DNA of 64,000 nucleotides, taken from contig JANRLW010000077.1 of the NCBI GenBank assembly GCA_033762295.1, positions 1 to 64,000 of the forward strand, in the 5' to 3' direction. Positions 24,965 through 63,998 of the stretch are shown here, one piece after another; positions within the stretch are counted from its first letter, which is position 1; each line of letters starts with the position of its first letter. Source of the stretch: Capsulimonadales bacterium (GTDB lineage: Bacteria; Armatimonadota; Armatimonadia; Armatimonadales; Armatimonadaceae). Position numbers and translations under genes: made by a program. Below the pieces are notes generated by a model. It worked only from the letters and a program-made list of their open reading frames with translations. It was not told the origin of the DNA and ran no database searches.

Positions 24965-26680
24965 TTAACCGGCGTAGATGACGCGCAGCGACTCCTCCAG
25001 GGTGGTGATTCCCAGAAGGATCTTCTCCATCGCGTCCTCTTTCAGGGTTTTCATTCCGGCCTCGATGGCCGCCTCACGAATGGCGTAGGCGGAGGCATGG
25101 GCAAGGATCAGTTCTCGCACCTTATCGGTGACGGGCATCAGTTCGTAGCAGCCGACGCGCCCCTTGTAGCCGCTTCCCTTGCAGGTGTCGCAGCCTCGAC
25201 CCCGGAAGAACGTGACCTTGCTGCGATCGATCTCCTCGAGATTCATCCCGAGTCGCTTGATGGCATCGCGCGGCGGTTCGTAGGGCTGTTTGCACTTCTC
25301 ACAGACCTTGCGCAGCAGACGCTGGGCCATGATGCCGACCGTCGCCGAGGCGATCAGGAAGGGTTCGACCCCCATATCCATCAGACGGGCGACCGCGCCG
25401 GGCGCGTCGTTGGTGTGCAGGGTGGAGAAGACCAGGTGTCCGGTCAGCGCGGCCTCGATCGCGATCATCGCCGTTTCCTGGTCGCGCATCTCGCCGACCA
25501 TGATGATGTCCGGGTCCTGACGGAGCATCGAGCGCAGACCGGCGGCGAACGTCATGCCGGCTTTTTTGTTGACGCCGACCTGGGTGATCCCGGGAATCTC
25601 GTACTCGACCGGGTCCTCGATCGTCAGGATGTTCTTCTCTCCGCTGTTCACCTTCGCGAGCGACGAGTACAGCGTGGTCGACTTTCCGGAGCCGGTCGGT
25701 CCGGTGACCAGGATGATGCCGTAGGACCGCATCAGCATGGATTCGAACATCTCGAAGGTATGCGGCAGGAGACCGAGGCGATGGAGGCCGATATTAATGT
25801 TGCTCTTGTCGAGAACGCGCATAACGATCTTCTCGCCGAAGACCGCGGGAAGCGTGGAAACGCGAAAGTCGAACGGTTTCCCCTCGATGATGAGCGAGAT
25901 TCGTCCGTCCTGCGGGACGCGCTTCTCGGCGATATCCATCTCGGCCATGATCTTGATACGCGACGTGAGGGAAGCCTGCGCCTTCTTCGGGATCAGAAGT
26001 CCGTCGACCAGAATGCCGTCGATACGATAACGGACCTTGAGGCAGTCGCGGGCCGGTTCGATATGGATATCCGATGCCTTTTCGGTGATGCCACGCGCGA
26101 TCACGGCATTGGCGAGCTTGATGATCGGGGCGTCGTCGGCGGCCTGCCGTTCCTCCTCGACCGAGGCGGCGATCTCCGGGCGCGTATTGTCGAGCGATAC
26201 GTCCTCATCCTCGAAATCCTTGAGAACCTTATCGACCGCGTCCCCGACCCCTCGATACGCTTCCTGGATGGCAAAGGTGATGTCTTCCTCGGTCGCGATG
26301 ATCGGATCGACCTCTTTGCCGGTGATGAGACGGATTTCGTCGGTCGCAAAGATATCGAGCGGGTTTTTCATCGCCAGTTTCAGGCGATTGCCGCGTACCT
26401 CCAGCGGAATGACCTTATATCGACGGGCGAGATCCTGTGATATCAGTTGTGCGGCGCCGGGATCGACGGTGTCGGTGGAAAGGTCGGCATAGGGAACGCC
26501 CCAGTGCTCTCCCAGAACTCGTGTGCGGTCTCGTTCCGTCACCGCGCCCATCGACACGAGAAGATCACCGAGCTGCTTTCCTCCCCCCAGTTGTTTCTGT
26601 TTCTCGAGAGCGCTATATAGTTGCTCGTTGGTAATCAATCCCTTACGAACAAAAATCTCTCCGATTCGTTCACCTTGCAT
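24965..26680 (-). CDS. pilB: Type IV pilus/T2SS assembly ATPase PilB/GspE with N-terminal MshEN domain
   Basis: ASDIHIEP, DIAEKRVPQDGR, Walker A GPTGSGKST, TIEDPVE, LRQDPDIIMVGEMRD, TGHLVFSTLHTN, CxxC/CxxC; N-terminal RIGEIFVRKGLI...LEKQ. Confidence 0.92.
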   Translation of the reverse strand: MQGERIGEIFVRKGLITNEQLYSALEKQKQLGGGKQLGDLLVSMGAVTERDRTRVLGEHWGVPYADLSTDTVDPGAAQLISQDLARRYKVIPLEVRGNRLKLAMKNPLDIFATDEIRLITGKEVDPIIATEEDITFAIQEAYRGVGDAVDKVLKDFEDEDVSLDNTRPEIAASVEEERQAADDAPIIKLANAVIARGITEKASDIHIEPARDCLKVRYRIDGILVDGLLIPKKAQASLTSRIKIMAEMDIAEKRVPQDGRISLIIEGKPFDFRVSTLPAVFGEKIVMRVLDKSNINIGLHRLGLLPHTFEMFESMLMRSYGIILVTGPTGSGKSTTLYSSLAKVNSGEKNILTIEDPVEYEIPGITQVGVNKKAGMTFAAGLRSMLRQDPDIIMVGEMRDQETAMIAIEAALTGHLVFSTLHTNDAPGAVARLMDMGVEPFLIASATVGIMAQRLLRKVCEKCKQPYEPPRDAIKRLGMNLEEIDRSKVTFFRGRGCDTCKGSGYKGRVGCYELMPVTDKVRELILAHASAYAIREAAIEAGMKTLKEDAMEKILLGITTLEESLRVIYAG

Positions 26681-26887
26681 AGTATCGGGGTGTTCCTATC
26701 GAATATTATGGCGATTGGTGCCGTCGCTTTTACCGGGCCGCGGTCCATCCCTGGTTTCCTGCACGAGTTCGTTCGGCGGGCCGGAAAGAGACACTTCATT
26801 TTCGGTATGCGCCGTCAAAATCCGGACTTTTTACGGAAACGGATACATGGCCCGGTCATTCGGGTCGGAGGGGCGCAAAACGACAAA

Positions 26888-26925
26888 GCGAACGGCGGGG
26901 ACGTTTTTCGCTCCCCGCCGTTCGC
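26888..26925 (-). terminator. Intrinsic terminator after the secretin gene
   Basis: GCGAACGGCGGGGA-N10-TCCCCGCCGTTCGC 14-bp stem followed on the minus strand by TTTGTCGTTTTG. Confidence 0.7.
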
Positions 26926-26948
26926 CTCTTGTCCGCAATCGGTCGTCG

Positions 26949-29483: not shown

Positions 29484-30201
29484 GAGCGTCCTCTCCTGAT
29501 TTTCCTTTGCCGATACGTACCGTGACACGGCGATGTCCGGCCTTATCCTCGATATCGACGCCGTCCGCATGAACGGCGACCACTTTATATCCGTTGCCGA
29601 CGAAATCTCCGACCGTGACGAAGCGACGATCGTCGCCCTTTTCACCGTCGACGCGCATGATCGCGATATTGGCCGTGCCGGTTGCGCGGGAATCGGCCAT
29701 CACCACACCGGTCACCATCAGGGGCGGCGGTGGGGCCGCCTCCTGAACGGCGACCTTGATACCGGCCTGTCCGGCATTCACTCCCTTGGCCAATTTAAGG
29801 ATATCAGCCAATCCCTGCATTTTTTGACCGGACGGGGGTGGCAACGGTCCGGGTGTCGGTAGCGGTCCGGGTGTCGGCAGCGGTCCGGGTGTCGGCGGAG
29901 GCGGGGTCTCCCGCGGCGCGGCGCTTCCGACCGGCATGAAGGGATCACGCCCGCCGAGGGGCCGATTGACCATCTGTTCCAGGTCGATGGGCGTGCCCGG
30001 GTCCGACGGAGCGGGCGTCCCGCCGACCGGAGCCGCCTGCGCGACCTGCGTTCCGGGGGGAGCCGGGGAGGCCGCGGCGGCGGGCGCATTCGTCGGTGCG
30101 GAAGCGCCGACGAACTGGTAAACACCATAACCGAAGACCAGAACAAACATGCCGATCATAGCGAATAATTTCGGCTTATCTTTTTCATCTAACGGCTTCA
30201 T
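29470..30201 (-). CDS. PilP-position membrane-anchored Pro-rich protein
   Basis: Between pilO and the secretin; N-terminal TM, RDPF motif, C-terminal VTGV...A.....V.VGD beta domain. Confidence 0.65.
   Translation of the reverse strand: MKPLDEKDKPKLFAMIGMFVLVFGYGVYQFVGASAPTNAPAAAASPAPPGTQVAQAAPVGGTPAPSDPGTPIDLEQMVNRPLGGRDPFMPVGSAAPRETPPPPTPGPLPTPGPLPTPGPLPPPSGQKMQGLADILKLAKGVNAGQAGIKVAVQEAAPPPPLMVTGVVMADSRATGTANIAIMRVDGEKGDDRRFVTVGDFVGNGYKVVAVHADGVDIEDKAGHRRVTVRIGKGKSGEDARATN
29845..29898 (-). repeat. 18-bp in-frame tandem repeat x3 (PTPGP linker unit)
   Basis: cggtccgggtgtcggtag / cggtccgggtgtcggcag / cggtccgggtgtcggcgg. Confidence 0.85.
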
Positions 30202-30216
30202 GGAAATCCCTTTCGT

Positions 30217-30939
30217 CTAGACGCCCCGGGTCGTGGGATTCGGCGTCGATGCGGAAGCGGCCTTTTCCGCTTCCGGTCTTGCCGTGTTCTGGTCGTCTTT
30301 GAAGACAAACCCGGTCAGAGTCAGTTTGGCGTTGACGCTTTTGGAGTATTTGTTATCGGTATTGATCGGCGTGATTTGCAGGTTCTCAACCGCGATGATC
30401 TTCTCGAAGGTCGTAAAACGATGCAGGAGGCGCGCGACATTCCAGTAGGCGCCGGTGACTTCCATATCGATATGGAACTTGTCATAGGGCCAGGGCTTGA
30501 ACGTCTTGCGCTTCTCCTTGTCGGTGGGCGGATCCGGCGCGGGTTCGACGTTATAGGTTCCGTTCGGCCAGCCAAGGTCCATCTGATTCGCCAGAGTCTC
30601 CATCTGTTTCAGCAGGGTGGGCACGTAATCGCCGGGGGAGATCGACGTCTCCAGATAGCGGAGTTTCTGCTCGACGCGAGCATACTCGGTCTGCACCTCC
30701 GTCAGTTGATTGGCGATCTTGTTGGCGTTATCGACTTCCTCGTTTTTCTTTCGAACCTGAGCCTCGACCTGAGCGACGGCGGCGCTCTGCCAGGCGAACA
30801 GTCCGATGCTGACAAACAGAACGAAACCGGTGAGGCCGCCGAGCAGGGCGCAGGTCTGCCGGGACGGTTTAAGGGTAAACGGCGCTTTTTCCGGTTTTTT
30901 CGATGTCTCGGTCGCGTTCTCGGGCGTTTCCTTAGCCAT
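30217..30939 (-). CDS. pilO: Type IV pilus assembly protein PilO-like
   Basis: TM, coiled coil, then VPTLLKQM and MEVTGAYWNVARLL..F.KII.V.NL ferredoxin-like pattern; operon position. Confidence 0.75.
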   Translation of the reverse strand: MAKETPENATETSKKPEKAPFTLKPSRQTCALLGGLTGFVLFVSIGLFAWQSAAVAQVEAQVRKKNEEVDNANKIANQLTEVQTEYARVEQKLRYLETSISPGDYVPTLLKQMETLANQMDLGWPNGTYNVEPAPDPPTDKEKRKTFKPWPYDKFHIDMEVTGAYWNVARLLHRFTTFEKIIAVENLQITPINTDNKYSKSVNAKLTLTGFVFKDDQNTARPEAEKAASASTPNPTTRGV

Positions 30940-31567
30940 TGTTCTTACCTGCCTCTCCGGCGCCCGCCTGCGCGTTCTGAGCGGGTCCCTTGGTCTCTTC
31001 GGGTTTCGGGGCGGGCCGCAGATGGACGCCCAGATCAAACGAAAAACGGGTCACGGTTTCGCCCGGCGTACGGGGCACCTCTTTCGAGGATCGCAGTTCC
31101 ACTCCGTCGAAAATCGGCTGTCGCCCGAGTCTTCGGTAGGTCTCGCCGATGATGGTTTTGTTGGCGGCGATACCGGTCAGGTTGATTGTCATGTCCTCCG
31201 CGGCACCGGCGGTGGCCATGGTGGAGATCCAGGCATCCTCGGGGATGGAAGCGGAGATCGCCTGCATGACGGCTCGCCAGCGGTAGGTTTCGCGTTGCGC
31301 CTGCTCCAGCGTCTCCACTTTGGGCATCAGGGCGTCCTTGGCCTGGTTGAGCTTCTCGATCTCCTCCAGTTTGGGCTTGACCGTCGCCCAGCGTCGTTCC
31401 GCCCCGGCCAGGGACGCGTGAGCCGCGACCTGTCGTGCGCCGACATAGAGGATCACCGTCACCAGAATTCCGACGCTCCCCAGAAGTCCGACAAAAAGCT
31501 GGCGCGTCAAACGTTCGATCTTCTTCTTTTCTTCGCGACGCGCGGCAATCAGGTTAATATTCGGCAT
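30932..31567 (-). CDS. pilN: Type IV pilus assembly protein PilN
   Basis: MPNINL N-terminal motif, TM, coiled coil, IPEDAWIS. Confidence 0.85.
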   Translation of the reverse strand: MPNINLIAARREEKKKIERLTRQLFVGLLGSVGILVTVILYVGARQVAAHASLAGAERRWATVKPKLEEIEKLNQAKDALMPKVETLEQAQRETYRWRAVMQAISASIPEDAWISTMATAGAAEDMTINLTGIAANKTIIGETYRRLGRQPIFDGVELRSSKEVPRTPGETVTRFSFDLGVHLRPAPKPEETKGPAQNAQAGAGEAGKNNG

Positions 31568-31589
31568 AGGATTCCTTTCTACGCTCTCC

Positions 31590-32711
31590 TTAGGCCTTGG
31601 CCGTAACGGAGGACATATATTCCTTGACCGCGAGTCCCAGACAGACAGCGAGTCGCGGCGCCTGATCGCGCAGCCATTCCTCCGCCTCGGGTGCGGCTTC
31701 GAACAGCGGGGAATCCAGCGCACTGGCCACGCGAGCATCGACGCCCAGGCGCGCGGTGACGTACTGGGGCAGTCCCATCATCTGCGCGGTCCCGCCGGAG
31801 AGAAGGATCTCCGCCAGCGGCTGCGTTCCGCGCGACTCGGCCACCTGCGATTGATAGTAGGAGGCGGAGCGGCGCACTTCGCGCAGCAGTTCGTCGACCA
31901 CCGACTGAAGGACACGTGCGGTTTCGAGCATCTCGGCATCGCCGCCCTGGATCAGCACGGAAAGGTCCAGTTCGGTCTTGCGTCGCTCGGCTTCATTTTC
32001 ATCGACGCGCAACTGGTTCTTGAGGGCGTCGGAGAGCGTATTTCCGGAGATCGGGATCGATCGCGACAGCGCGAAATCCGGTCCCTGGAGCAGAATCACC
32101 TCGGTCTGGGTCGCGCCGATCTCGACCAGGGCGCGCAGGGCGCCGTCCTCGTAGTACCGGCGATTACAGTCGACCAGGGCGCGAACCAGCGCGAAGGAGG
32201 TCGTGTCGACCGCGGCGGCTTCCAGTCCCGCCTTTTCCACGCTTTCGATACGCGCCTCCACCATTTCCTTGGGGGCGGCGACCATCATCACTTCCATCTG
32301 GTTCGGTTCGTCCGGGACCGCGCCCAGGATTTCGAACGCAAGCGCCGAGTCGTCGATGCTGGAGGAAACGAACTTACCGGCTTCGTAACGCGCCGACTTC
32401 AGCAGGGCGGCCTCGGGCATTCGGGGCATTTTGATCTGCCGGACCATGACGGTCGGCCCGGAAACGGCCAGTACCGCGCTGTTGGCGGAGATGTTGGCGG
32501 CTTTCAGCATCTGCTTCAACGCCGAGGAGACGGCGCCGCGATCCGAAATCACCCCATCGCGAAGCGCGCCGGCCGGCGTCTTCTGCTGCGCCGCGCGCAC
32601 GATTCGAAAGCGATCCCGCTGCGGTTCCACCTGTACCGCCTTGAGGTTGGCGCTGCCAATGTCGATGCCGATAAAGGTCTCTTTTCCGAAAAGGGATGCC
32701 AGAGCGGACAC
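31590..32711 (-). CDS. pilM: Type IV pilus assembly protein PilM
   Basis: IGIDIGSANLK actin-like ATPase start, VEIGAT, EVRRS..YY, LSGGTA, GLA. Confidence 0.9.
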   Translation of the reverse strand: MSALASLFGKETFIGIDIGSANLKAVQVEPQRDRFRIVRAAQQKTPAGALRDGVISDRGAVSSALKQMLKAANISANSAVLAVSGPTVMVRQIKMPRMPEAALLKSARYEAGKFVSSSIDDSALAFEILGAVPDEPNQMEVMMVAAPKEMVEARIESVEKAGLEAAAVDTTSFALVRALVDCNRRYYEDGALRALVEIGATQTEVILLQGPDFALSRSIPISGNTLSDALKNQLRVDENEAERRKTELDLSVLIQGGDAEMLETARVLQSVVDELLREVRRSASYYQSQVAESRGTQPLAEILLSGGTAQMMGLPQYVTARLGVDARVASALDSPLFEAAPEAEEWLRDQAPRLAVCLGLAVKEYMSSVTAKA

Positions 32712-43055: not shown

Positions 43056-44431
43056 CGGATCGGCAGGGTCCTTATCGGGGTCGCCAGTGAGCCGGGGGAG
43101 GTGCCGCGGATCAGTCGGGCCGGGATCCCGGTGCGTCGGAAGTAGGCGTTGCGGATCGCTTCGGTGACGGCGGCTTCACGGTCGGCGCGGCAGAGGATAC
43201 AGACGGTTCCGCCGGAGCCGCCTCCGGTGATTTTCGCGCCGGCGACGCCTTCCTGTTCCCTGGCCAGTTCCACCAGCAGATCCGTTTCGGTCGAGCCGAT
43301 GCCGCAGTCGGTATAGGATTGATGCGCTTCGTACATCCTCTGACCGGCGGCGGCGAACGCGTCCGGGTCCGCATCGCCGACCCGTATCCGTTCGACAAAA
43401 TCCCGCACGCGTTCGTGTTCGAAGATCGGATGTTCGGTGGCGGCGCGGACGAGGTAGGTTTCGTTCGGATCGACGGTTGTCACCGTGTCGAAGATACCGG
43501 AATGGCGGGCAAGGAACTCCGCGCCGGTGATTCGATCCGGGAGCGCGCCGCCGGGCAGGTTCGCGACGATACGGCGGTAATCGTCGGGGGTCACATTGCC
43601 AAGGTAACCGCCAAACCCCGATTTCGCCGCGTCGGACAGGATTTTGTAGCCCATGAAGGCGGCGACGCGCACGCGGATGTAGGCGTTTCCGGCGACGCTG
43701 TGCTTGTGACCGGAGTCGAGTCCGAACGCGCACCAGTCGGGCGGAAGTTCGGCGAAGCCGCGCAGTTCGGCGGGTTGACAGAGCAGGAGCAAGAGTTTCC
43801 CGGCCTCGCCGAGGGTGGCCGTCACCTGATCCATGATGCCGCAGGGGGCGTCCATGACATCGTTCTCGACCCGCTGGCAGAGTTTGGCCATCTCAAGGCC
43901 ATCCAGGGCGACGGAGAACGCGGCGCAGAGGGCGCGCATCGACGCGACCTCGACGGCGGCGGACGAGGAGACGCCCGCTCCGAGCGGCACGGTGGAGTTG
44001 AGGAGGAGTTTCGCGCCGACGCCGCGCGGAATCAGGCCCTCGGCGCGCAGCAGGGAGAAGCATCCGGCGACATACCCGACCCAGTGGGCTTCCGGCGGAT
44101 GTTCACGCAGGTATTTGAGCAGCGAGACGGGGTTGATGAACACCTCGGCGGGGAGCGAAACCTCCTCGGTCAGTCCTTCGGCTTTCGCATTGAGCGAGCG
44201 GACGACGACGGTGTTTTCCCCGGTTCCGCCGACCAACGCGCCGACCATCGCCGCCTGCTCGATCGGCATTTCGGCGACGAGCGAACCGGAGTAGTCGGCG
44301 ATACCGCCCATGACATCGAGTCGTCCGGGGGCGCGGGCGACGTGGACGGTCGCGCCGGAGGGGAAGAAATCCGCCGCCTCACCGGCGAGCGTCGTCTCAA
44401 AAGCGGCATAATCCTGTGCGGTATCGTACAT
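43052..44431 (-). CDS. GHMP sugar kinase (galactokinase / plant L-arabinokinase-like)
   Basis: ARAPGRLDVMGGIADYSG, VPLGAGVSSSAA, APCGIMDQ, GAKITGGGSGG; ATG 44431 with GGGAG RBS. Confidence 0.88.
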   Translation of the reverse strand: MYDTAQDYAAFETTLAGEAADFFPSGATVHVARAPGRLDVMGGIADYSGSLVAEMPIEQAAMVGALVGGTGENTVVVRSLNAKAEGLTEEVSLPAEVFINPVSLLKYLREHPPEAHWVGYVAGCFSLLRAEGLIPRGVGAKLLLNSTVPLGAGVSSSAAVEVASMRALCAAFSVALDGLEMAKLCQRVENDVMDAPCGIMDQVTATLGEAGKLLLLLCQPAELRGFAELPPDWCAFGLDSGHKHSVAGNAYIRVRVAAFMGYKILSDAAKSGFGGYLGNVTPDDYRRIVANLPGGALPDRITGAEFLARHSGIFDTVTTVDPNETYLVRAATEHPIFEHERVRDFVERIRVGDADPDAFAAAGQRMYEAHQSYTDCGIGSTETDLLVELAREQEGVAGAKITGGGSGGTVCILCRADREAAVTEAIRNAYFRRTGIPARLIRGTSPGSLATPIRTLPIR

Positions 44432-44533
44432 CTCCCGTTCATTGTCCGGAGCGGAGGAAAAGTCCTTCCCTTCGGCCGAAGGTGTTGCCGTTCGGAGGGA
44501 AGTCCGGTTACAATGGAGGCCGGGCAATCACCA

Positions 44534-46435
44534 ATGACGCTGCGTGGCCTTTTCCTCGGTTTTTTCGGAGCGATCGTCGTCTCGATCTATCAGATGATCT
44601 TCAAGATCATTCCTGATCGCGTGTTTCTGTCCTTTCCGAGCGTCCACACCCTCTTTACCGGCGTTATTTTCTGGGTTTTCCTGCTGGCGGTCGTCAATGC
44701 CTTCCTGAAGCGTCGCTTCTCCCGGTGGGCGTTGCAACCGGCGGAGATGGCGGTCATTTACGGCATCTCGACCGTCGCGGCGAGCATCGCGGCTCAGGAC
44801 GAGGCTCAGTTCCTGTTTCCGATGTACGTCTATCCGTTTCGCGAGACGCAGGCGGATCGTATGGGACCGTTCCGGCAGTTCATCCCGACCTGGATGGTGC
44901 CGCAGGACCCCGCCATCGTCGAACCGCTTTATACCGGCCATGTGAACTTCTGGGAGCCGGAGCGGGTACGCGCGTGGGCCATCCCGGTGGCCTGCTGGCT
45001 GGTCTGGTTCACCGTTCTCGGGGCGACGATGTGGGCGTGGAACGCCATACTTCGCCGTCGGTGGATCGACCACGACAAACTCTCCTTTCCCTGCGTTCAG
45101 CTTCCGCTGGAACTGTGCCGGAACGCCGGGTTCGGCGGGCGGGCGGGGGGAACGCTCTTCTGGGTCGGCTTCGCGATTTCGGCGGTGATCGAATCGCTCA
45201 ATACGCTGAACTCGATCGTTCCGAACGTGCCGTATCTCCGGCTGGACTGGGAGGCGTCCTCGACCATCGAAGCTCTGCCCTCCCCCTGGAAGGCCGCCGC
45301 CCCGATGTACCTGACCTGGGGGACGCTGCATCTGGGCATCTGCTACCTGATTCCGACCGATATCCTGTTCAGTTCATGGTTCTTCTATCTGTGCCGGAAG
45401 GCGCTCGAAATATTCGGCTATGCGATGGCCTGGCGTGAACTCGGCTGGGACGCAAGCGGTTTCCCCTATACCCGGGCGCAATCGGCCGGGGCGTGGGCGG
45501 TGCTGTTCTTTCTCCTGGTCTGGGCGGAGCGTCGACGGCTGGGCCATGCGCTGGAAGCGGCGTTCACTTTCGGTCCGCAACCCGATCCGGGCGACGAGCC
45601 GACGAGCGACCGGACCGCCGGACGCGTTCTGATCGTGGGCACGCTGTTTCTGATCGCCTGGGGAGTCGCCAGCGGCATGTCGCTCGCCATCGCGATCGCG
45701 TTCTACGGGTTTTTCTTTCTGCTCAACATCACGATGACGCGCGTCTATGCGCAGGTCGGTCCGCCGATTCTCGAACTGTACTACCTGGACCCGGAGAAGA
45801 CGTTTACGACGATCTTCGGAACCCTCGGTCAGCAGCCCGGACCGCTGGTGCAGTTCTCCCTGATGTACTGGATCAACCGCGATCACCGGGGTCAGATCAT
45901 GGGCCATCAACTGGCGGCGCTGAAGGTGGCGCAGGAGTCCGGCGTTTCGCTGCGGCGGTTCGGCCCCTGGATTCCGGTCGCGTTCACGGTCGGCGCGGCG
46001 ACCTGCCTGATCACCTACCTGCACTGGGTCTACCGGGTCGGCGAGGATCAGTTCGTATCCGGCGGTTACCGGGAGGCGGCGGCGGGACTGGCGATCAGCC
46101 GGATCCGGGAGTGGGTCTTCACGCCGAAGGGGCCGAACTGGCTGGAGATCGGGTTTATGGGGTTCGGGGCGATCTTCACGGCGATCCTGGCGAAGATCAG
46201 TTTCACGTTTCCGGGGTTGCCGCTGCACCCGATCGGGTACGCGCTGGCGGTCTGTTTCGCGGTGGAGTACAACTGGCCCGCGTTCCTGCTGATGTGGATC
46301 GCCAAAAGCCTGATCCTTCGGTACGGCGGCCTGAAAAACTATCTGCGGTTCGTTCCGCTGGCGCTCGGTCTGACCCTCGGCGGATTCGTCGTGCCGGTCT
46401 TCTGGGGCTTTTTCAAATGGTGGCTGGATCGCTGA
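44534..46435 (+). CDS. DUF6785/DUF6784-type polytopic membrane protein (putative transporter)
   Basis: Many TM helices; LRRRWIDHDKLSFP..QLP and PLHPIGYA...W....KSLILRYGG motifs; true start near 44534, not 43319. Confidence 0.7.
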   Translation: MTLRGLFLGFFGAIVVSIYQMIFKIIPDRVFLSFPSVHTLFTGVIFWVFLLAVVNAFLKRRFSRWALQPAEMAVIYGISTVAASIAAQDEAQFLFPMYVYPFRETQADRMGPFRQFIPTWMVPQDPAIVEPLYTGHVNFWEPERVRAWAIPVACWLVWFTVLGATMWAWNAILRRRWIDHDKLSFPCVQLPLELCRNAGFGGRAGGTLFWVGFAISAVIESLNTLNSIVPNVPYLRLDWEASSTIEALPSPWKAAAPMYLTWGTLHLGICYLIPTDILFSSWFFYLCRKALEIFGYAMAWRELGWDASGFPYTRAQSAGAWAVLFFLLVWAERRRLGHALEAAFTFGPQPDPGDEPTSDRTAGRVLIVGTLFLIAWGVASGMSLAIAIAFYGFFFLLNITMTRVYAQVGPPILELYYLDPEKTFTTIFGTLGQQPGPLVQFSLMYWINRDHRGQIMGHQLAALKVAQESGVSLRRFGPWIPVAFTVGAATCLITYLHWVYRVGEDQFVSGGYREAAAGLAISRIREWVFTPKGPNWLEIGFMGFGAIFTAILAKISFTFPGLPLHPIGYALAVCFAVEYNWPAFLLMWIAKSLILRYGGLKNYLRFVPLALGLTLGGFVVPVFWGFFKWWLDR

Positions 46436-46439
46436 CGGA

Positions 46440-49247
46440 TCAGCCGAAGGTGATGACGAATTTGGCTCCGATGTCGGGAATTCCGGTCGCACGGATCGTG
46501 CCGCCGTGACGTTCGACGATCTTGCGGCAGATCGCCAGACCGATCCCGGTGCCTTCCCGATGGTTGCCGTCGAGTCGTTCGAAGACATCGAAGATGCGTT
46601 CGGCATCCTTTTCGGAGAACCCCATCCCGTTATCCTCGATGGTGAGAATGTGCCGTCCGTTCGCCCACTCATGTTCGATGCAAATCACCGTGGGGAGACC
46701 GTCGCGATGGAACTTGAGAGCGTTTCCGATCAGGTTCTGGAAAAGCTGCCGCATCTGCAGGGCGTCGGCGTCGATGGTCGGCAGAGGCGCGACACGGATG
46801 GTCGCTCGCGACTCGGCGATACGCACCTCCAGATCGTTCAGCACCTCGCGCACCACGGCGTTCAGATCGGTCGGCGCGAACGCATTTCCCTTGGTGGTGA
46901 CGCGTGAATAGGACAGCAGACCGTCGATCAACGCCTGCATTCGGTCGGAGGCGGACAGCATCCTCTCCAGATAACCGGCGGCGTCTCCGTCCAGCGTGCT
47001 CGCTTTTCGCGCCAGCATGCTGCCGAACGTCCGAATCTTCCGCAGCGGTTCCTTGAGGTCGTGGGACGCGATGGAAGCGAAGTCCTGGAGAGCGGCGTTG
47101 CTTCGCGCCAGTTCGTTCGCCATATTCCGCAGACGCACTTCGGCGGCCTTCTGCTCGGTGATATCGGTACAGACGCCGATTACCCGCCATTTGTCGGGAC
47201 CGAGGGGCTGGATTTGCGCTTCCTCGCGCAGCCAGTGGTCGACCCCGTCGCGGTCGCGACAGCGGAACTCCTGCGTATAGCCGGGCTTGCCCCAAAGAAT
47301 GGCCTCCCGGCTGTTGCCGTCGATCTTCGCCATATCCTCCGGGAGGCGCGAGTCCGACCACGCCCGGGAGTACTGTTTCGGGGCGGTGTCCAGCGGGACG
47401 ATCCGCAGGGCGGACGCTTCGTTGCAGATTTCGAAGTCCCAGACCAGTTCCTCCCCATCGAGGGTGACGATCGCATCCCAGAGAATACAACGGGCCTTGT
47501 TGAGAACGCTTTCCAGTCGTTCCTCGGCCAGTTTTCCGGAGGTCACTTCCCGACAGACGCCGATCACGGTCCAGTGATCGGCTCCGAGCGGCTTGATCAG
47601 CGCATCCTCATAGAACCACCAGAGGTTGCCATGAAGATCGCGACAGCGGAACTCCTGACGGTATCCGGGCAGGTTCCCCCGCAGCGCCTCTTCCGCGGTT
47701 CGGTCGATCCGTACCCGGTCCTCCTTCAGGCGGCTTTTATCCCAGGCCCACTCATATTTATCGACGGTGGTATCGAGGGGAAACAGTTGCCGGGCGGTCT
47801 CCTGATTGAGAATCCGCATATCCCAGTCCAGATTCTCGCCGTTCCGGCGGACATCCGCTTCCCAGAGCAGACAGCGCGCGCCGGCCAGCACTTCGTCGAG
47901 CCGCTCTTCGAATCGTTTTCGATCGGTGATATCGGTGCTGATGCCGGTCACCTGCCAGCGGCCCGGTTCCAGGGCGCGGATACGGACATGTTCGCTCAGC
48001 CAGACCGTATTTCCGTATCGGTCCCGGCACCGAAACTCCTGAGTGTAGCCCGGCTTCCCGGACAGAATCGCTTCGGTGCTGGTGGCATGCAATCGCGCCT
48101 GGTCGTCGGCGCGGCTTTCGACCCAGGCGGCGATATAATCCCGGTCGGTGGTGTCGAGCGGCAGCACGAGGAACGCCGACCGTTCGTTCCGAAGGTGCGC
48201 TTTCCAGCGCAGCCGCCCCGTCTCCGGTTCCTGCGTCACTTCGGCATCCCATACGATGCACCGGGCGTCCTCTACGATGGTCTGCAGTCGTTCCTCGGCC
48301 TGTTTTCGGGCCGTGATATCGACGGTCGCGCTGACCCCTCCGGTGATCCGTTCCGCTCCGTCCCGCAGAGGAAAGGTGGTCGTCAGCAGGCTCTTGATCG
48401 TTCCGTCGCTTCCCCGGAACGTCCATTCCCGGTTGACCGTCTCCTCACCCTGCGCGATCCGCCGGAGGACATCCTCCTCATCGTCCGCGGTTCCGATCAC
48501 TTCCCGGATCGGCCGACCGACCACCTGGGCGGCGGTCCGGTCGAAAACGACCTCCGCCGCATGGTTCCAGATCAGGATGCGTCCTCTGGGATCGAAGCTA
48601 TAGCAGGCGACGGGTATCCCGGCGAAGAGGGAGACGAATCGATGGGCGGCGGCTTCCCGCTCCGCGCTTTCCTTCCGGAATCGTTCCTGTTGACGTTCCT
48701 GGTCGGCGTTCTCCCGTAACAACCGTTCCTGCGAGTTTCGATACCGGGCCAGCACGAGGCCGCCGAGGTAGAGGGTGAACACGAACCAGACGATGGTGAA
48801 GATGCTGACCGACAGCAGGAGATCGAGTTTCTGTCGATAGTCCTGGTAGAGGGCGCGGCTCAGCGTTTGCGCCGCCTGTCGAAGAGAGTCGGCGTTTTCC
48901 CAGTCGATCCTTCCTTCCCGCTCCAGGCGGGTCGCGAACGCATCGAACACCGGGTCGAGGCGAGCGACTTCCGTCGGGAACGGACGACGCAATCGGTCGC
49001 GGGTCGTGCGCATCGCGTCCAGCGAGGGGCGGACGTCTCCGTCGCTCCGCGCCTGAACCCCATAGACATAGAGGCTGCGTTCGCCCAGGGCGGCGGCCTC
49101 CTCACGCAGTTCGGCGTCCCGGAAGGTGGTGGCTACCTGAAGGACGATGAACCCGAGCAGGCAAAGCAGCAGGGCGCTGGCGGCGACCAGCAGGTTCGCG
49201 ACCGTCTTGCGGGAGTCCTCGAATTTGGCGGGCATCGGCAAAGGCAT
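46440..49247 (-). CDS. Membrane sensor histidine kinase with four PAS domains
   Basis: Two TMs; PAS/PAC repeats ending DIT..K.AE; H-box FASIASHDLKEPLRKI; QLFQNLIGNALKF, EDNGMG, GTGIGLAIC. Confidence 0.92.
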   Translation of the reverse strand: MPLPMPAKFEDSRKTVANLLVAASALLLCLLGFIVLQVATTFRDAELREEAAALGERSLYVYGVQARSDGDVRPSLDAMRTTRDRLRRPFPTEVARLDPVFDAFATRLEREGRIDWENADSLRQAAQTLSRALYQDYRQKLDLLLSVSIFTIVWFVFTLYLGGLVLARYRNSQERLLRENADQERQQERFRKESAEREAAAHRFVSLFAGIPVACYSFDPRGRILIWNHAAEVVFDRTAAQVVGRPIREVIGTADDEEDVLRRIAQGEETVNREWTFRGSDGTIKSLLTTTFPLRDGAERITGGVSATVDITARKQAEERLQTIVEDARCIVWDAEVTQEPETGRLRWKAHLRNERSAFLVLPLDTTDRDYIAAWVESRADDQARLHATSTEAILSGKPGYTQEFRCRDRYGNTVWLSEHVRIRALEPGRWQVTGISTDITDRKRFEERLDEVLAGARCLLWEADVRRNGENLDWDMRILNQETARQLFPLDTTVDKYEWAWDKSRLKEDRVRIDRTAEEALRGNLPGYRQEFRCRDLHGNLWWFYEDALIKPLGADHWTVIGVCREVTSGKLAEERLESVLNKARCILWDAIVTLDGEELVWDFEICNEASALRIVPLDTAPKQYSRAWSDSRLPEDMAKIDGNSREAILWGKPGYTQEFRCRDRDGVDHWLREEAQIQPLGPDKWRVIGVCTDITEQKAAEVRLRNMANELARSNAALQDFASIASHDLKEPLRKIRTFGSMLARKASTLDGDAAGYLERMLSASDRMQALIDGLLSYSRVTTKGNAFAPTDLNAVVREVLNDLEVRIAESRATIRVAPLPTIDADALQMRQLFQNLIGNALKFHRDGLPTVICIEHEWANGRHILTIEDNGMGFSEKDAERIFDVFERLDGNHREGTGIGLAICRKIVERHGGTIRATGIPDIGAKFVITFG

Positions 49248-59325: not shown

Positions 59326-60051
59326 ATGAAACGTATTCCCGAACCGCCTGCGGACGCTTCCCGCCCTGTGATCGTTCGTACGATCGGCCTGCGCAAGACC
59401 TACGGCGAAGGCGGTCCGAACCCGGTAGAGGTTCTGCACGGCGTCGACATGGAAGCCTATGCCGGCGAGTTTGTCGCGATCATCGGTCAATCCGGCTCCG
59501 GCAAATCGACGCTCCTGAATATTCTGGGCGCTCTGGACGTTCCTACCGCCGGTCAGGTGCTGATCGATGAGATTGATATCGGGTCTCTGGATTCGGACGG
59601 GTTGGCGGAGTTACGGAGCGACAAAATCGGTTTCGTCTTTCAGTTTCACCATCTGCTGGAAGAGTTCACCTGCCTTGAGAACGCGTTAATGCCGGTCATG
59701 ATCCGCAAAGGCGCTGCGGAAAGCCAGGATATCGAGTATGCCCGCCGCCTGCTAACACGGGTGGGACTTGAATCGCAGATGAACAAACGGGCCAACGCGA
59801 TGTCGGGGGGTCAACAGCAACGCAACGCGATCGTTCGCGCACTGGTCAATCGTCCCCGGCTGGTACTGGCCGACGAACCGACGGGCAACCTCGACAGCCA
59901 TTCCGGTGAGGAAGTTTTCAAACTGATGCGAGAAATCGCCCGTGAAACGCACGTCGCGTTTCTGATGGTCACTCACGACGACCGGCTGGCGCGGGCTGCG
60001 GATCGAGCGCTTCGAATCAACGACGGGTTAATCGAGACAGCGACGTTTTAG
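59326..60051 (+). CDS. ABC transporter ATP-binding protein, LolD/MacB-type
   Basis: GQSGSGKST, IGFVFQFHHLL, MSGGQQQR, LADEPTGNLD, VTHD. Confidence 0.9.
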   Translation: MKRIPEPPADASRPVIVRTIGLRKTYGEGGPNPVEVLHGVDMEAYAGEFVAIIGQSGSGKSTLLNILGALDVPTAGQVLIDEIDIGSLDSDGLAELRSDKIGFVFQFHHLLEEFTCLENALMPVMIRKGAAESQDIEYARRLLTRVGLESQMNKRANAMSGGQQQRNAIVRALVNRPRLVLADEPTGNLDSHSGEEVFKLMREIARETHVAFLMVTHDDRLARAADRALRINDGLIETATF

Positions 60052-60121
60052 CCGGAATCGCCCGACCGCGGATCGGTTACCGACATATCGTCCGCGATGA
60101 ATCGCATCGATATCTTTTGGA

Positions 60122-61447
60122 TCACTCCGGCGTTTTTGCGATCGTTTCGTCTTCCTTGCTGCCGACTTCCGGGTCCGGCGTGGCGATCGTTTCGGGCGCC
60201 TCTCCCTTGGAGACGCGCACATAGATCGTTTTGCCGACTCTCATTCGCCTTCCGGCGGCATCGGACTGCTCGTAAATCTGCCCTTCGGAGACTTCGGTGG
60301 TATAGCCGCTACGCTGGCTTCGTACGAGGCGCAGTCCACGCTCGTCGGCCAATTCCTGCGCTTCCTCGAGCGTCATGCCGAGGAAACTCGGAATGGTGAC
60401 CGTTTCCGGCGGCGCGTCGTTCCGCAGACGGGGCGAAGCCACGTTTTCGATGTCGGGCGTCACGCTCGCCTGTACCGGTCGGGCCTCCCGGTCGTTCGTC
60501 GGGGACGATTTTTTCGCGACGGCGCTCCCGGACGGTTTGGCCGGTTTCTTTTCCGGTTTCGCGGCGACCGGCGGACGGGTGACCTGCCGATACATTCGAA
60601 CGATCTGTTGCCGGGTCGCGGGGTGGTTCCACGCGCCGTATCCGCCGCCGAGGAAAATCATGCCCATACAGAAAGCAATGACGAGACGTTTGGCGCCTTG
60701 TGACATTCCCGCGCGGGTTCGTCGCGCTTCCTGCGTGGCTTTTTCGGTCGCGGCCACCTTTGCCGGTTTGCCCGGCTGACCGCACGGAATCCCATCGAAC
60801 TTTCCGAAAAAGTTGAAGAGATGGACGGTGACACCATGCTTGACCTGACACTCACCGATATCCTGAAGGTAGCGGGGCCAGGGATCGACCGTCCGTAACT
60901 TCTCGGCATACTCGGCGGACAGGAGAATATGCCCGGCATCGCCGCAGTCCATGATCCGCTGAGCCATGTTGACCCCTTCCCCGGCGACTTCGGACTGGGA
61001 ATTCAGGTCGGTGGAGACGATGATCGGACCGGTATGGATGCCCATCCGCAGATGGAACATGGTCCCGGTCCGGTCGCGGATCTCTCGTTCGTTGTGCCGA
61101 AGGAGACTCTGCAATTGAATCGCGCAACGCAGCGGCGACAGAACATCGCGCAGGAACAACAGCGCGGCGCCGTCCCCGGTCGGTCGAATGATCAGTTTTT
61201 TCTCTTCCCGTCCCATCGTGACCTCACCGGCCATCTGCAACTGATGCTGGAGTTCACGCTGGATATCGGCCTGCTGGACGGTACGGTATCGGGAGTAACC
61301 GACAATATCGACAAAAAGGATGTGGGCAATTTCCATTGCCGGGCCGGAGGCCGCCGAAATCAGCGGAGCACCCGCCGAGACGCTCCCGAGACCGACGGGA
61401 GTGGCTTTATCGCGTTTTCCGGTGATGCCTTGCCAAAGCGGGTCCAT
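60122..61447 (-). CDS. Class III adenylate/guanylate cyclase domain + TM + C-terminal PASTA domain
   Basis: ILFVDIVGYS, PTGDG, RMGIHTGP, GEGVNMAQR cyclase motifs; TM LVIAFCMGMIFLGGGYGAW; VTIPSFLGMTLEEAQELADERGL...GQIYEQS..AG......IYVRVSKG PASTA pattern. Confidence 0.85.
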   Translation of the reverse strand: MDPLWQGITGKRDKATPVGLGSVSAGAPLISAASGPAMEIAHILFVDIVGYSRYRTVQQADIQRELQHQLQMAGEVTMGREEKKLIIRPTGDGAALLFLRDVLSPLRCAIQLQSLLRHNEREIRDRTGTMFHLRMGIHTGPIIVSTDLNSQSEVAGEGVNMAQRIMDCGDAGHILLSAEYAEKLRTVDPWPRYLQDIGECQVKHGVTVHLFNFFGKFDGIPCGQPGKPAKVAATEKATQEARRTRAGMSQGAKRLVIAFCMGMIFLGGGYGAWNHPATRQQIVRMYRQVTRPPVAAKPEKKPAKPSGSAVAKKSSPTNDREARPVQASVTPDIENVASPRLRNDAPPETVTIPSFLGMTLEEAQELADERGLRLVRSQRSGYTTEVSEGQIYEQSDAAGRRMRVGKTIYVRVSKGEAPETIATPDPEVGSKEDETIAKTPE

Positions 61448-61655
61448 AGCTACCTGATTCTATAATTGACTTCCCGACTCGCATCGCAAGACGGCCAGGA
61501 AAACGAATGAACGGCGACCGTCCCCTTCCTCGCTGAAGAACACGTTCCAATTTATCTTCGGTTGAAGTGTGAGAATTATTTAATAGTCCCGTCTGTGTGA
61601 CGACGAACAGACGAGATTCGTTCTGCCAAAGGCCGTTCTCCCGGTATCTTTCTTT

Positions 61656-63998
61656 TCAGGAATTTTCGGCCGAAAGCGGCACGGCATCGGCGAGCGGAGT
61701 CACATCGGCCCAGGTCGTACCGGTTTTTACTTCGACCTCCAGAGCGACCTTGAGCGGATAGGCGCGCGCCATGCACTCCTCGACGCAATGCGCCATCTCG
61801 GTGACTTCCTCGGTCGGCGTCTCGAACAGCAGTTCGTCATGCACCTGCAACAACAGACGGGATCGGAACTGCCGATTCCGCATCGTCTCCCGGACATCGA
61901 TCATGGCCCGCTTCATGATGTCGGCGGACGACCCCTGGATCGGCATATTGGAGGCGGCTCGCTCGGCCCCCTGGCGGAACTGAAAAACGCGCGAATTGAT
62001 ATCCGGTATGTAACGTCGTCGTCCGAACAGGGTTTGAACGTACCCCTTTTCCCGAGCGAAGGCGACGGTTTCGTCCAGATAACGCCGCACCCCTGGAAAC
62101 CGGTCGAAGTACGAGGTTTTTAGCTCCTTTGCCGCCTTCATCGAGATCCCCAGACGACGGCCCAGCGCAAAATCCGAGATGCCGTAGATGACCGCGTAAT
62201 TGACCGTTTTGGCGGCACGGCGCATATCTCCGGTCACTCCGCTCACCGGGACATTGTATATCTTCCCCGCCGTGTATTTATGAATGTCCTCTCCGGACTC
62301 GAACGCGGCCACCAGTTCCGGGTCCTCGCTGACATGGGCGAAGATACGCAGTTCGATCTGCGAATAGTCGGCCGATAACAGCACCATGCCCGGAGGCGCG
62401 ATGAACGCACGACGGATCTCCCGGCCGATTTCGGTTCGGATAGGGATGTTCTGCAGATTCGGATTGGAGGAGGACAGTCGGCCGGTGGCGGCAACGGTCT
62501 GGTTCAGCGACGTATGTATCCGCTGCGTTTCCGGACGAACCAACGCCGGCATCGCATCGGTGTAGGTTCCCTTCAGCTTGGACAGTTCGCGATGCTGAAG
62601 GATCAGTGAAACGATCGGATAATCGGCCGACAGTTCCTCCAGGGTATCGGCATCCGTCGAATATCCCGTCTTGGTCTTTTTTCCGGCAGGCAGTTTCAGT
62701 CGCTCGAACAGCACTTCCTGTAACTGTTTGGGCGAACCGATCGTAAACGCCCCCCCGGCGATACCGAAGATTTCGGTTTCCAGCTGCTCGATCCGGCTCT
62801 GTAACTGCGCGGACATCCGATGGAGAACGTTGACATCCACGAGCAGACCGGCGTTCTCCATCTCGGCCAGAATCGGCGCGACCGGCAGTTCCAGTTCCCG
62901 CAGGATCGTCATCAGCCCGGCGGCATCCAGGCGGGGTTCCTGCACCTTTCGAACGGCCAGGATCGCGTCGGCTTCCGCGATGGCCTGAGCCTTTTCATTG
63001 GCCTCGACCTCGGCATCCGTCATCCCCCTGCGCTCTTTTTTATCGATCGTTTTGACCGTTTTCCCGGAATAGTCCTGAGCCATCTCGGGCAGGGAGTATC
63101 CCGACCGCCGCCCGGCGTTCAGCAGGTAACCTCCCAGATCGGTATCGAAGAGGACGCCATTTAACGAGACGCCATAGCGGGAGAGAATTCCGACATCGGT
63201 CTTGGTATCGTGTGTCAGCTTGGCGACGGTCGGGTCCGCCAGCAGCTTCGCCAGTGAGACAGGCATGGACAATACCGGTTCGATGCCATCGGCGGTCGGC
63301 GTTTCCTCAAAGAGCCCGCCCAGTTCGGACGACGGAGGCGCGGCAGGTTCTTCGCCGGTACTCAGGGGAAAATAGAAAACCGTGCCGCCCTCGGGAACCG
63401 TATCCGGTCCGTTTTCGGGCGCAAGCGCCACCCCGTGAATTCGGACCTCCGCCATACCTTCTCCGTGAAGATGGAGACGCACCGCCACGCTGTTCGCCTG
63501 TCGCAACACGGCGAGGGCCGCCGCCTGCTCCTCCGGGGTGACCGCTTCCCGGACGGTCGGCGCGCCGGGAGCCGACGCCGGGTTCGCGATCTCCTCCTCG
63601 GTCACAGCGAACGGATCGTATTCCTCCGCCTCCAAATCAACGGTCGGCGCAACTCCCGGCGCAACCTTGCCGGAGTCCGGAAGTCGTCGCAACAGCGTTC
63701 GGAACTCCAGCCGTTCGAACAGCGCCCGCACCGCCGAGTAGTCCGGCTCATAGACCGCCTTCTCCGGCGGAGGAACCGTCACTTCCTCCAGCGGCACCTC
63801 CCGCAGAATCGTCGCCAGTCGTTTCGATTTCGCCATCTGTTCGCGAGAGGCGTCCAACGACGCCCGGGTCTTCGGCTGCTTTACCTCATCGATATGCTCC
63901 AGAAGGTTTTCAATCGTCTCGAACTGCTGCAGCAGTTGAGCCGCAGTCTTCTCCCCGATACCGGGAACTCCGGGAATATTGTCGGACGCATCGCCCTT
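61656..63998 (-). CDS. polA: DNA polymerase I (5' part outside window)
   Basis: KGDASDNIPGVPGIGEKTA H3TH motif, TGRLSSSNPNLQNIP, ADYSQIELR motif A, R..AK.VNY motif B, LQVHDEL motif C. Confidence 0.97.
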   Translation of the reverse strand, partial: KGDASDNIPGVPGIGEKTAAQLLQQFETIENLLEHIDEVKQPKTRASLDASREQMAKSKRLATILREVPLEEVTVPPPEKAVYEPDYSAVRALFERLEFRTLLRRLPDSGKVAPGVAPTVDLEAEEYDPFAVTEEEIANPASAPGAPTVREAVTPEEQAAALAVLRQANSVAVRLHLHGEGMAEVRIHGVALAPENGPDTVPEGGTVFYFPLSTGEEPAAPPSSELGGLFEETPTADGIEPVLSMPVSLAKLLADPTVAKLTHDTKTDVGILSRYGVSLNGVLFDTDLGGYLLNAGRRSGYSLPEMAQDYSGKTVKTIDKKERRGMTDAEVEANEKAQAIAEADAILAVRKVQEPRLDAAGLMTILRELELPVAPILAEMENAGLLVDVNVLHRMSAQLQSRIEQLETEIFGIAGGAFTIGSPKQLQEVLFERLKLPAGKKTKTGYSTDADTLEELSADYPIVSLILQHRELSKLKGTYTDAMPALVRPETQRIHTSLNQTVAATGRLSSSNPNLQNIPIRTEIGREIRRAFIAPPGMVLLSADYSQIELRIFAHVSEDPELVAAFESGEDIHKYTAGKIYNVPVSGVTGDMRRAAKTVNYAVIYGISDFALGRRLGISMKAAKELKTSYFDRFPGVRRYLDETVAFAREKGYVQTLFGRRRYIPDINSRVFQFRQGAERAASNMPIQGSSADIMKRAMIDVRETMRNRQFRSRLLLQVHDELLFETPTEEVTEMAHCVEECMARAYPLKVALEVEVKTGTTWADVTPLADAVPLSAENS

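Follow-up and report, generated by a model that had tools for sequence, protein, structure and literature searches.

A class III nucleotide cyclase with a predicted extracytoplasmic PASTA domain in the Armatimonadaceae and its linkage to a Crp-type regulator gene

What would a PASTA domain do on a nucleotide cyclase, and which nucleotide would such an enzyme make? These questions are raised by a gene (P0001) on the reverse strand of the window, by which we mean the whole 64,000-nucleotide stretch analysed here (positions 1 to 64,000 of contig JANRLW010000077.1 from a Capsulimonadales bacterium of the Armatimonadaceae, assembly GCA_033762295.1). Of the cell-wall sensors of Gram-positive bacteria, PASTA receptors are the best known, and, to our knowledge, all of those that have been characterised either phosphorylate proteins as their signal or are part of penicillin-binding proteins. 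An earlier note, made from the sequence alone, had described the encoded protein as a class III cyclase followed by one transmembrane segment, a Pro/Lys-rich linker, and one PASTA domain, which is the layout of PknB with a cyclase in place of the kinase. This architecture is confirmed by Pfam, hydropathy, an AlphaFold2 model, and Foldseek, and a true PknB-type PASTA kinase is encoded 14 kb away. In our judgment there is a somewhat better than even chance that the protein is a PASTA-gated single-pass class III cyclase whose product, most likely cyclic AMP (cAMP), is read by a Crp-family factor. The earlier note knew of no characterised example, and none was found in our literature search: no publication describing a PASTA-bearing cyclase was returned, and the mentions of adenylate cyclase were nearly all two-hybrid assays or kinase surveys. 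One paper, PMC7159879, brings up PASTA solely among the effector domains of conflict systems, and another, PMC4886424, concerns DUF2652 and has no bearing on this protein. The linkage to a Crp-type gene and the family-wide residue census of the PASTA-cyclases are new here.

The protein belongs to the class III cyclase family (PF00211) and to the PASTA family (PF03793) by both sequence and fold. Guanylate_cyc (PF00211) matches residues 43-203 with 32.9 bits against a cut-off of 21.9 (E-value 6e-8), and PASTA matches residues 350-414, over model positions 1-64 of 64, with 41.7 bits against a cut-off of 23.2 (E-value 1.1e-10). Both scores lie above the curated cut-offs, and chance is therefore excluded as their source. 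In the whole-genome scan the class III cyclase model gave 34.5 bits for this protein, and PASTA was found at 60206-60400 with 45.7 bits. In a sequence search of the PDB, matches were obtained to the cyclase 3mr7 (E-value 5.8e-7) and to 3py9 (E-value 7.7e-7), which is the PASTA region of a kinase. The protein is not a PASTA kinase: the NCBIfam model NF033483 (PknB_PASTA_kin) reached 35.1 bits, far below its cut-off of 450, and covered residues 250-421 only, and no Pfam match to Pkinase was found in the protein. Its PASTA domain is 30-32% identical to the repeats of the PknB-type kinase of the same genome. When the PASTA region alone (residues 340-425) was used as the query in a word-based search, the sole match was the query itself.

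The AlphaFold2 model was built from a 31-row alignment of family sequences and has a mean predicted local distance difference test score (pLDDT) of 81.8. The cyclase domain is modelled with a pLDDT of >90 and is followed by a long helix at residues 229-290, which is split as helices 229-274 and 276-290. Residues 298-344 of the linker have a pLDDT of <50 and are predicted to be disordered. The PASTA domain (pLDDT of ~97) folds as strands 349-351, 373-376, 390-394, 401-403, and 407-412 with a helix at residues 360-369. The top Foldseek matches in the PDB are class III adenylate and guanylate cyclases with TM-scores on the target of 0.70-0.83, many of them found with a probability of 1.00; 1ybt (0.83) is an example. 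One hydrophobic peak is present at residues 255-273, with a Kyte-Doolittle mean of 1.69; the second-highest peak (1.33) is the first strand of the cyclase domain. With a single transmembrane segment and no signal peptide on the cyclase, the PASTA domain is placed outside, and the predicted topology is a cytoplasmic cyclase joined to a periplasmic PASTA domain. The 75 residues that follow the transmembrane segment include 12 Pro, 10 Ala, 8 Arg, 7 Val, 6 Lys, and 6 Ser. Among relatives the linker varies in length, and its alignment columns are gappy and unconserved. A variable leader of 20-30 residues is also found in relatives, ahead of the conserved MEIAHVLF start of the cyclase domain.

The catalytic residues were compared over the 24 cluster representatives with cyclase and PASTA domains (298-564 residues) that occur among the best 150 matches of a profile search against 1.84 billion cluster representatives. 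Eighteen of the 24 were checked with Pfam; one of these, a fragment, has its cyclase domain just below the cut-off. Both metal-binding Asp residues and the transition-state Asn-Arg pair of class III cyclases are present in the window protein, where the motifs VDIVG, TGDG, IRPTGD, SEVAG, and VNMAQR quoted in the earlier note were all found in the translation. The first metal-binding residue, D47, is kept in 18 of 18 family members and 22 of 22 representatives that cover the position, as well as in 101 of 101 relatives from the wider, very large cyclase subfamily described below. The second, D92, is kept in 23 of 23 representatives. The segment SEVAGEGVNMAQR contains E153, N160, and R164. The transition-state R164 is kept in all 24 representatives, as is K203, which we take to occupy the phosphate-binding Lys position of class III cyclases; the adjacent H204 is shared by all 19 family members and all 101 relatives. 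N160 is not a family constant, since position 160 is Asn in 9 representatives and Ile, Val, or Thr in the other 15 (10, 4, and 1, respectively). In the cited passages of PMC4215837, Ma1120 of Mycobacterium avium has Ala in place of this Asn and is active as an adenylate cyclase, and the A164N substitution lowered its activity. The loss of Asn160 is therefore not a sign of inactivity.

The two positions that specify the substrate carry neither of the usual signatures. The adenylate cyclase pair of Lys and Asp (or Thr) is absent, the window protein having R88 and E153 and the family norm being Arg and Asp. The guanylate cyclase pair, described in passages of PMC4215837 and PMC1262709 as Glu followed by Cys, Ser, Gly, or similar, is absent as well, with Arg at the first position and Glu at the second. 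R88 lies four residues ahead of D92 and pairs with a Lys of 3mr7 in the alignment. The earlier note had singled out both residues as departures from adenylate cyclases. Both are there, and the Arg proves to be the rule of the family: all 19 family members have it, as do 22 of 23 representatives, and the remaining one has Lys (one of the 24 is a fragment that lacks the position). The Glu is a minority variant: position 153 is Asp in 21 and Glu in 3 of the 24 representatives, and Glu occurs once in a closer set of 31. The full canonical set of Lys, Asp, Asn, and Arg is found in the paralogue L108 and in the representative P0150.

These residues raise the question of whether the same receptor makes a different messenger, with R88 and E153 favouring a substrate other than ATP and the product being cyclic GMP (cGMP) or a cyclic pyrimidine such as cyclic CMP (cCMP). 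The near-constant Arg in place of the adenine-specifying Lys would fit such a preference, as would a Glu at position 153 that is longer than the usual Asp. According to passages of PMC11224242, D102 and D146 bind the metal in the cCMP-producing Pycsar cyclase EaPycC, and F100, R142, and Q144 determine its specificity; R142 precedes the second metal-binding Asp by four residues, as R88 precedes D92, and F100 corresponds to the position of F45. The equivalence of R142 and R88 is suggested by their spacing, and the best match to a PADLOC PycC model is weak, at 17.3 bits. L108 and P0150 have the canonical Lys together with the same Asp, however, which suggests that Lys and Arg are interchangeable at this position, and the Crp proteins discussed next carry Ser or Thr at the position of S128 of Escherichia coli CRP in 8 of 9 cases, not the Glu known from a cGMP receptor or the Asn of cyclic UMP (cUMP) receptors. 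We consider a product other than cAMP to be unlikely. The fuller form of this proposal, in which lipid II or muropeptides are sensed by the PASTA domain, the Arg/Glu site (Arg/Asp in the family) makes a nucleotide such as cCMP, like the Arg-bearing Pycsar cyclase, and a dedicated Crp protein reads it, is a long shot. If it were true, a diderm related to the Gram-positive phyla would possess a housekeeping pathway that connects the cell wall with transcription, and this would be the first role of a cyclic pyrimidine outside defence and the first second-messenger output of a PASTA receptor.

The cyclic-nucleotide output predicted in the earlier note gains support from the loci of related genes, because a Crp-type regulator with a cyclic nucleoside monophosphate (cNMP)-binding domain is encoded directly downstream in many of them and has an orthologue in the window genome. 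Several genomes hold two paralogues of the cyclase. Twenty loci of the higher-scoring copy were collected, two of which end too near the gene to be read; score and synteny served to sort the added loci by paralogue, the tree having placed L101-L111 only, and the comparison was made without the closest relatives (P0002-P0017). A Crp-type gene lies directly downstream in 8 of the 18 readable loci, from genera g3, g6, and g8. Its product has cNMP_binding and HTH_Crp_2 domains, and it is on the same strand in L102, L103, L104, and L105, with a gap of 0-6 bp in L103-L105. Seven g6 loci have an ABC exporter (fused ABC_membrane and ABC_tran domains, 744 amino acids) in the place of the Crp gene, and the same exporter gene stands behind the Crp gene in the two g6 loci that keep it. 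A gene for NrdR is found divergently upstream in 17 of the 20 loci (L084-L088 and L195-L206). No Crp gene adjoins the second paralogue in any of its six loci.

The window genome has three cNMP-binding open reading frames, and the one on contig C81 (235 amino acids) is the reciprocal-best orthologue of the linked Crp proteins, with which it shares 44-45% identity (at most 34% for the next-best matches). Its closest solved relative is a Crp/Fnr-family regulator of Mycobacterium tuberculosis (3d0s, E-value 7e-27). All eight linked proteins keep the phosphate-binding cassette FGE(L/M)xL...PRSADA. Passages of PMC11224242 name S128 of E. coli CRP as the residue that recognises adenine; at this position a cGMP receptor is reported to have Glu, and cUMP receptors are reported to have Asn. 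Residues T143-S144 of the C81 protein align with T127-S128 of E. coli CRP, and Ser or Thr is found at the S128 position in 7 of the 8 linked proteins, or 8 of 9 when the C81 orthologue is counted.

Class III cyclases are dimers with active sites at the interface of the subunits, and this property suggests how a PASTA domain could control the enzyme. The catalytic domain (residues 36-228) would lie in the cytoplasm, with the helix behind it leading directly into the single transmembrane segment (residues 254-274), and the one PASTA domain would be held in the periplasm by a flexible linker of about 58 residues. Because this linker is disordered and varies among relatives, signalling by a rigid movement is unlikely. 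Instead, the PASTA domain would bind a cell-wall ligand, or a site of wall synthesis, and so gather or pair the receptors; the gathering would promote dimerisation of the cyclase domains and thus raise the output. By analogy with the PASTA kinases, which passages of PMC5786024 and PMC7286690 describe as sensing peptidoglycan fragments, the candidate ligands would be muropeptides, lipid II, or nascent peptidoglycan; residues for ligand binding are too narrowly conserved to serve as a sequence signature. What the sequences show directly is the architecture, fold, residue conservation, phyletic distribution, and gene linkage; the topology, control by dimerisation, ligand, activity, and product are inferences. 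The nucleotide, most likely cAMP, would then bind the Crp orthologue, which is encoded on contig C81 here and directly downstream of the cyclase gene in many orthologous loci. A homodimer prediction for residues 34-232 gave a score of 0.01 against a mark of 0.42; it was run without controls and counts neither for nor against dimerisation.

The single PASTA domain and the long linker could also be read differently. Ligand-responsive PASTA kinases usually carry several PASTA domains, and the kinase of this genome has at least two, whereas the cyclase has one; the disordered linker cannot relay a conformational signal. The domain might then anchor or localise an active cyclase at sites of wall synthesis or bind a partner protein, with cNMP production being constitutive or controlled from the cytoplasm. 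PASTA domains need not bind ligands; those of PBP2B of Bacillus subtilis provide a precedent, since they act in protein-protein interaction by strengthening the contact, according to passages of PMC7654742. The domain is nevertheless kept in 24 of 24 representatives, with P353, A363, and Q394 conserved, and localisation to a site rich in ligand would itself amount to sensing, as dimer-dependent enzymes follow local concentration. We regard a PASTA domain without a sensory function as rather unlikely.

The catalytic domain belongs to a wider subfamily that is marked by the motif DCGDxGH (DCGDAGH in the window protein). D167, D170, and H173 of this motif do not vary among the 19 family members or the 101 other relatives, and C168 is Leu or Ala in some PASTA-cyclases. 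The closest relatives that lack PASTA are 44-48% identical in the cyclase domain, and the kinase fusions among them 44-47%. In these proteins, mostly from Acidobacteriota and Verrucomicrobiota, an N-terminal cyclase domain is followed by a Ser/Thr kinase, TPR, TIR with an AAA-like domain, CHASE2, OmpA, or FlgO/TolB_N (TolB-like) domains. The DCGDxGH motif and the Lys-His pair are invariant in 101 of 101, and Leu (94) and Asn (99) take the place of Lys and Asp at the two specificity positions.

Such departures from canonical cyclases would fit a pseudo-enzyme, in which the cyclase-like domain binds a nucleotide or dimerises and the protein serves as a scaffold or co-receptor, for instance with the PknB-type kinase. 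The loss of Asn160 in 15 of the 24 representatives is compatible with this proposal, as are the Pkn2 protein of Myxococcus xanthus, which joins a kinase, a cyclase-like domain, and a transmembrane segment in the cited part of PMC1262709, and a protein from locus L112 that joins a kinase to a degenerate copy of the cyclase, a transmembrane segment, and PASTA. The L112 protein (L112:5935-8115 on the reverse strand, G226:C403; 726 amino acids) has a Ser/Thr kinase, one PASTA domain, and Glu and Gly at the metal-binding Asp positions of its cyclase-like domain; it may be a relic of how cyclase and PASTA became joined. In the PASTA-cyclases, on the other hand, the metal-binding Asp residues, R164, and K203 are invariant, which is hard to explain without catalysis, and the window protein retains N160 as well. 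A linked Crp protein with an intact cNMP cassette also points to a diffusible cyclic nucleotide. We consider a pseudo-enzyme to be very unlikely.

Beyond the PBP2B precedent, several observations weigh against a PASTA-gated cyclase that makes cAMP for a Crp protein. No Crp gene adjoins the cyclase gene in 10 of the 18 readable loci; in the window genome the two genes are on different contigs, and the cyclase-bearing genomes G040 and G202 have no Crp orthologue, their best matches being 29-30% identical. Sites resembling the Crp-box consensus TGTGA-N6-TCACA were sought in the 300 bp upstream of the cyclase gene in the window and eight relatives. The best site in the window matched at 8 of 10 positions, as did 58 of 500 shuffles; the best sites in the eight relatives matched at 6-7 of 10, no better than shuffles, and no site with at least 9 matches was found anywhere in the window. 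The window protein is the most divergent of 31 members, with substitutions, most of them conservative, at 9 of 65 otherwise conserved positions, and its terminal branch in the tree is 0.76 against a median of 0.14. Its specificity pair is Arg/Glu instead of Lys/Asp. No enzyme assay was found for the PASTA-cyclases or the DCGDxGH subfamily, and no solved structure or paper on that subfamily was found either, the nearest PDB match having an E-value of 5.8e-7.

The architecture is rare. Among the 120 best matches in a collection of 5.8 billion proteins, 19 carry both domains, at 35-46% identity; one of these is labelled as an Armatimonadaceae metagenome-assembled genome, and the relatives are annotated as "class 3 adenylate cyclase" or "hypothetical protein". 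In 301 genomes sampled from the phylum, full-length matches are confined to the family of the window, the Armatimonadaceae, a group of soil bacteria, where they occur in 21 of 32 genomes and 6 of 12 genera (in one of the 21 genomes the gene is cut by a contig end). Seven of the 32 family genomes have no match to the window query, and in the four genomes of genus g7 the match is to the cyclase domain alone. In a tree of 32 rows, the PASTA-cyclases form one clade within the wider subfamily, with a Shimodaira-Hasegawa-like approximate likelihood ratio test value of 99. Three full-length-looking proteins among the matches listed in a metagenome scan (L116, L123, and L149) have FlgO/TolB_N or TPR outside, not PASTA. 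As side observations, P0018, P0019, and L101:5881-7593 have an additional conserved domain of about 120 residues behind PASTA, without a Pfam match, and the profile search is dominated by giant proteins of 1,000-5,200 residues with 9-35 PASTA-like stretches (P0121-P0130 and others), such as P0121, with 2187 amino acids and 32 stretches.

The coordinates of the gene and its parts are collected in Table 1. The gene upstream on the same strand is polA, and the cyclase gene converges on a lone ABC ATPase gene. The spacer between polA and the cyclase gene likely holds the promoter of the latter. One sigma-70-like match was found at 61603-61575, which is at chance level (shuffle mean of 0.6), and the terminator-like hairpins in a scan of 59900-61800 are mostly on the wrong strand. 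None of the neighbours in the window (polA and the ABC ATPase, GSDH-like, ClpP-like, and GH38 genes) adjoins the gene in 14 related loci, and they are therefore silent on its function.

Table 1. Positions in the window of the PASTA-cyclase gene, its predicted parts, and the adjacent spacer
Feature	Coordinates	Strand	Basis
Whole gene for the putative PASTA-domain receptor cyclase (P0001)	60122..61447	-	Open reading frame of 441 codons plus stop; translation
Spacer of 208 bp, polA to cyclase gene	61448..61655	-	Open reading frame coordinates
N-terminal 35 residues, predicted disordered, low conservation	61342..61447	-	AlphaFold2 pLDDT 43-46
Class III cyclase homology domain, predicted cytoplasmic, residues 36-228	60764..61341	-	Pfam, AlphaFold2, Foldseek
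D47, first metal-binding Asp (VDIVG)	61307..61309	-	Aligned with Asp of 3mr7
RPTGD: R88 (substrate-specifying Lys position) and D92 (second metal-binding Asp)	61172..61186	-	Translation, 3mr7 alignment
EVAGEGVNMAQR: E153 (substrate-specifying Asp position), N160 and R164 (transition-state pair)	60956..60991	-	Translation, 3mr7 alignment
DCGDAGH (residues 167-173), signature of the wider subfamily	60929..60949	-	Conservation
K203-H204	60836..60841	-	Residue conservation among relatives
Predicted transmembrane segment, residues 254-274, within long helix 229-290	60626..60688	-	Hydropathy, AlphaFold2
Predicted extracytoplasmic Pro/Ala/Arg/Lys-rich linker, residues 291-348	60404..60577	-	Composition; pLDDT 38-42
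Single PASTA domain, residues 349-415	60203..60403	-	Pfam PF03793, AlphaFold2
Acidic C-terminal tail, residues 416-441	60125..60202	-	Sequence; pLDDT 45-47

The only other PASTA open reading frame of the genome encodes the PknB-type Ser/Thr kinase (G000:C77:74744-76738; L001:10744-12738, reverse strand), which sits among aro, rib, and rpe genes. The window also holds a type IV pilus-type locus at 24965-32711 on the reverse strand, with genes for a T2SSE/PilB-like ATPase, a secretin of 898 amino acids, PilO, PilN, and PilM. The link to this locus that the earlier note had floated found no support, the locus being about 27 kb away and the neighbours of the cyclase gene not conserved. The presence of secretins suggests that the host is diderm; NCBI taxonomy places the phylum among the Bacillati. 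The speculative link to defence found no support either. The matches to Pycsar cyclase models are weak (17.3 bits, E-value 6e-4, for the best PADLOC PycC match, where Pfam Guanylate_cyc gives 32.9 bits). In Pycsar systems PycC stands beside a PycTM or PycTIR effector, and neither effector gene is next door in the window or was seen in the 14 related loci; the protein is not a Pycsar cyclase. The matches to PADLOC PD-T4-6 stem from the PASTA region only, and a defence reading was rejected. Elsewhere in the window are genes for a BlaR1-type M56 peptidase, a membrane sensor-protease of 686 amino acids (1120-3180, forward strand), for a protein of 1038 amino acids with DUF6785 and DUF6784 (43319-46435, forward strand), and, adjoining the latter on the opposite strand, for a multi-PAS histidine kinase (46440-49247). 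In genome G040 (L101:7656-10964) the cyclase gene is followed by genes for a papain-like peptidase and for a protein with M23 peptidase and 3D domains, probably a hydrolase of the cell wall; the arrangement was seen in this one relative.

If the PASTA receptor makes a diffusible cyclic nucleotide that a Crp protein reads, it would represent a second wiring of wall status to gene expression. The candidate sensor, the enzyme, and the probable reader are all identified, and the pathway is hence directly testable. Its setting is a phylum that has received little study and that has secretins despite its NCBI placement in the Bacillati. An assay of a PASTA-cyclase would also inform thousands of proteins with non-canonical specificity residues.

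The closest parallel in layout is provided by the PASTA Ser/Thr kinases, such as PknB of M. tuberculosis, PrkC of B. subtilis, and Stk1/StkP. These have the same order of a cytoplasmic enzyme, one transmembrane segment, and PASTA outside; their output domain depends on dimerisation, as would the cyclase; and their PASTA sequences are related, one such kinase being encoded in the window genome itself. Unlike these kinases, the window protein has no kinase domain and a single PASTA domain, its output would be a diffusible nucleotide, and its host appears to be diderm. The receptor class III cyclases, including mammalian GC-A and the bacterial CHASE2- and HAMP-linked enzymes, share the combination of a membrane receptor with a class III domain, and the fold of the window cyclase is matched by GC-A (9bcv) and by bacterial cyclases in Foldseek. 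In known receptor cyclases the catalytic domain is C-terminal to the sensor and the transmembrane segment. Here the order is reversed, with the cyclase N-terminal of the transmembrane segment and no N-terminal transducer helix, and the sensor would be a PASTA domain, which was not found on cyclases in the literature searched.

Ma1120, a minimal class III adenylate cyclase of M. avium, has the same fold (4wp9 and 5d0e, TM-scores on the target of 0.79-0.80). In the cited passages on this enzyme, the transition-state Arg is kept, the Asn is replaced, and activity is retained, which is the residue pattern of most PASTA-cyclases. Ma1120 is described there as soluble with K101 and D157, whereas the window protein is predicted to be membrane-bound, has R88 and E153, keeps the Asn, and carries a putative sensor. 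Pkn2 of M. xanthus and the kinase-cyclase fusions have a cyclase-like domain ahead of a transmembrane segment and an outside region (PMC1262709, cited part); the window protein differs from Pkn2 in having no kinase, in having PASTA outside, and in its intact catalytic residues. The Pycsar cyclases, as EaPycC is described in the cited passages, share a class III-type fold and an Arg four residues ahead of the second metal-binding Asp. The window protein differs from them in its weak match to PycC, the absence of an adjacent effector, its predicted nature as a membrane receptor, and its chromosomal gene that is conserved within one bacterial family. A pairing of a class III cyclase gene with the gene for a cNMP-binding effector, as found in 8 of the 18 loci, is known from XC_0250/XC_0249 of Xanthomonas campestris (passages of PMC3770947). 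There the messenger is cGMP, and, according to passages of PMC11224242, the receptor reads the base with a Glu, whereas the Crp proteins described here have Ser or Thr at this position; the corresponding pair is unlinked in the window genome, and the cyclase here carries PASTA as its putative sensor.

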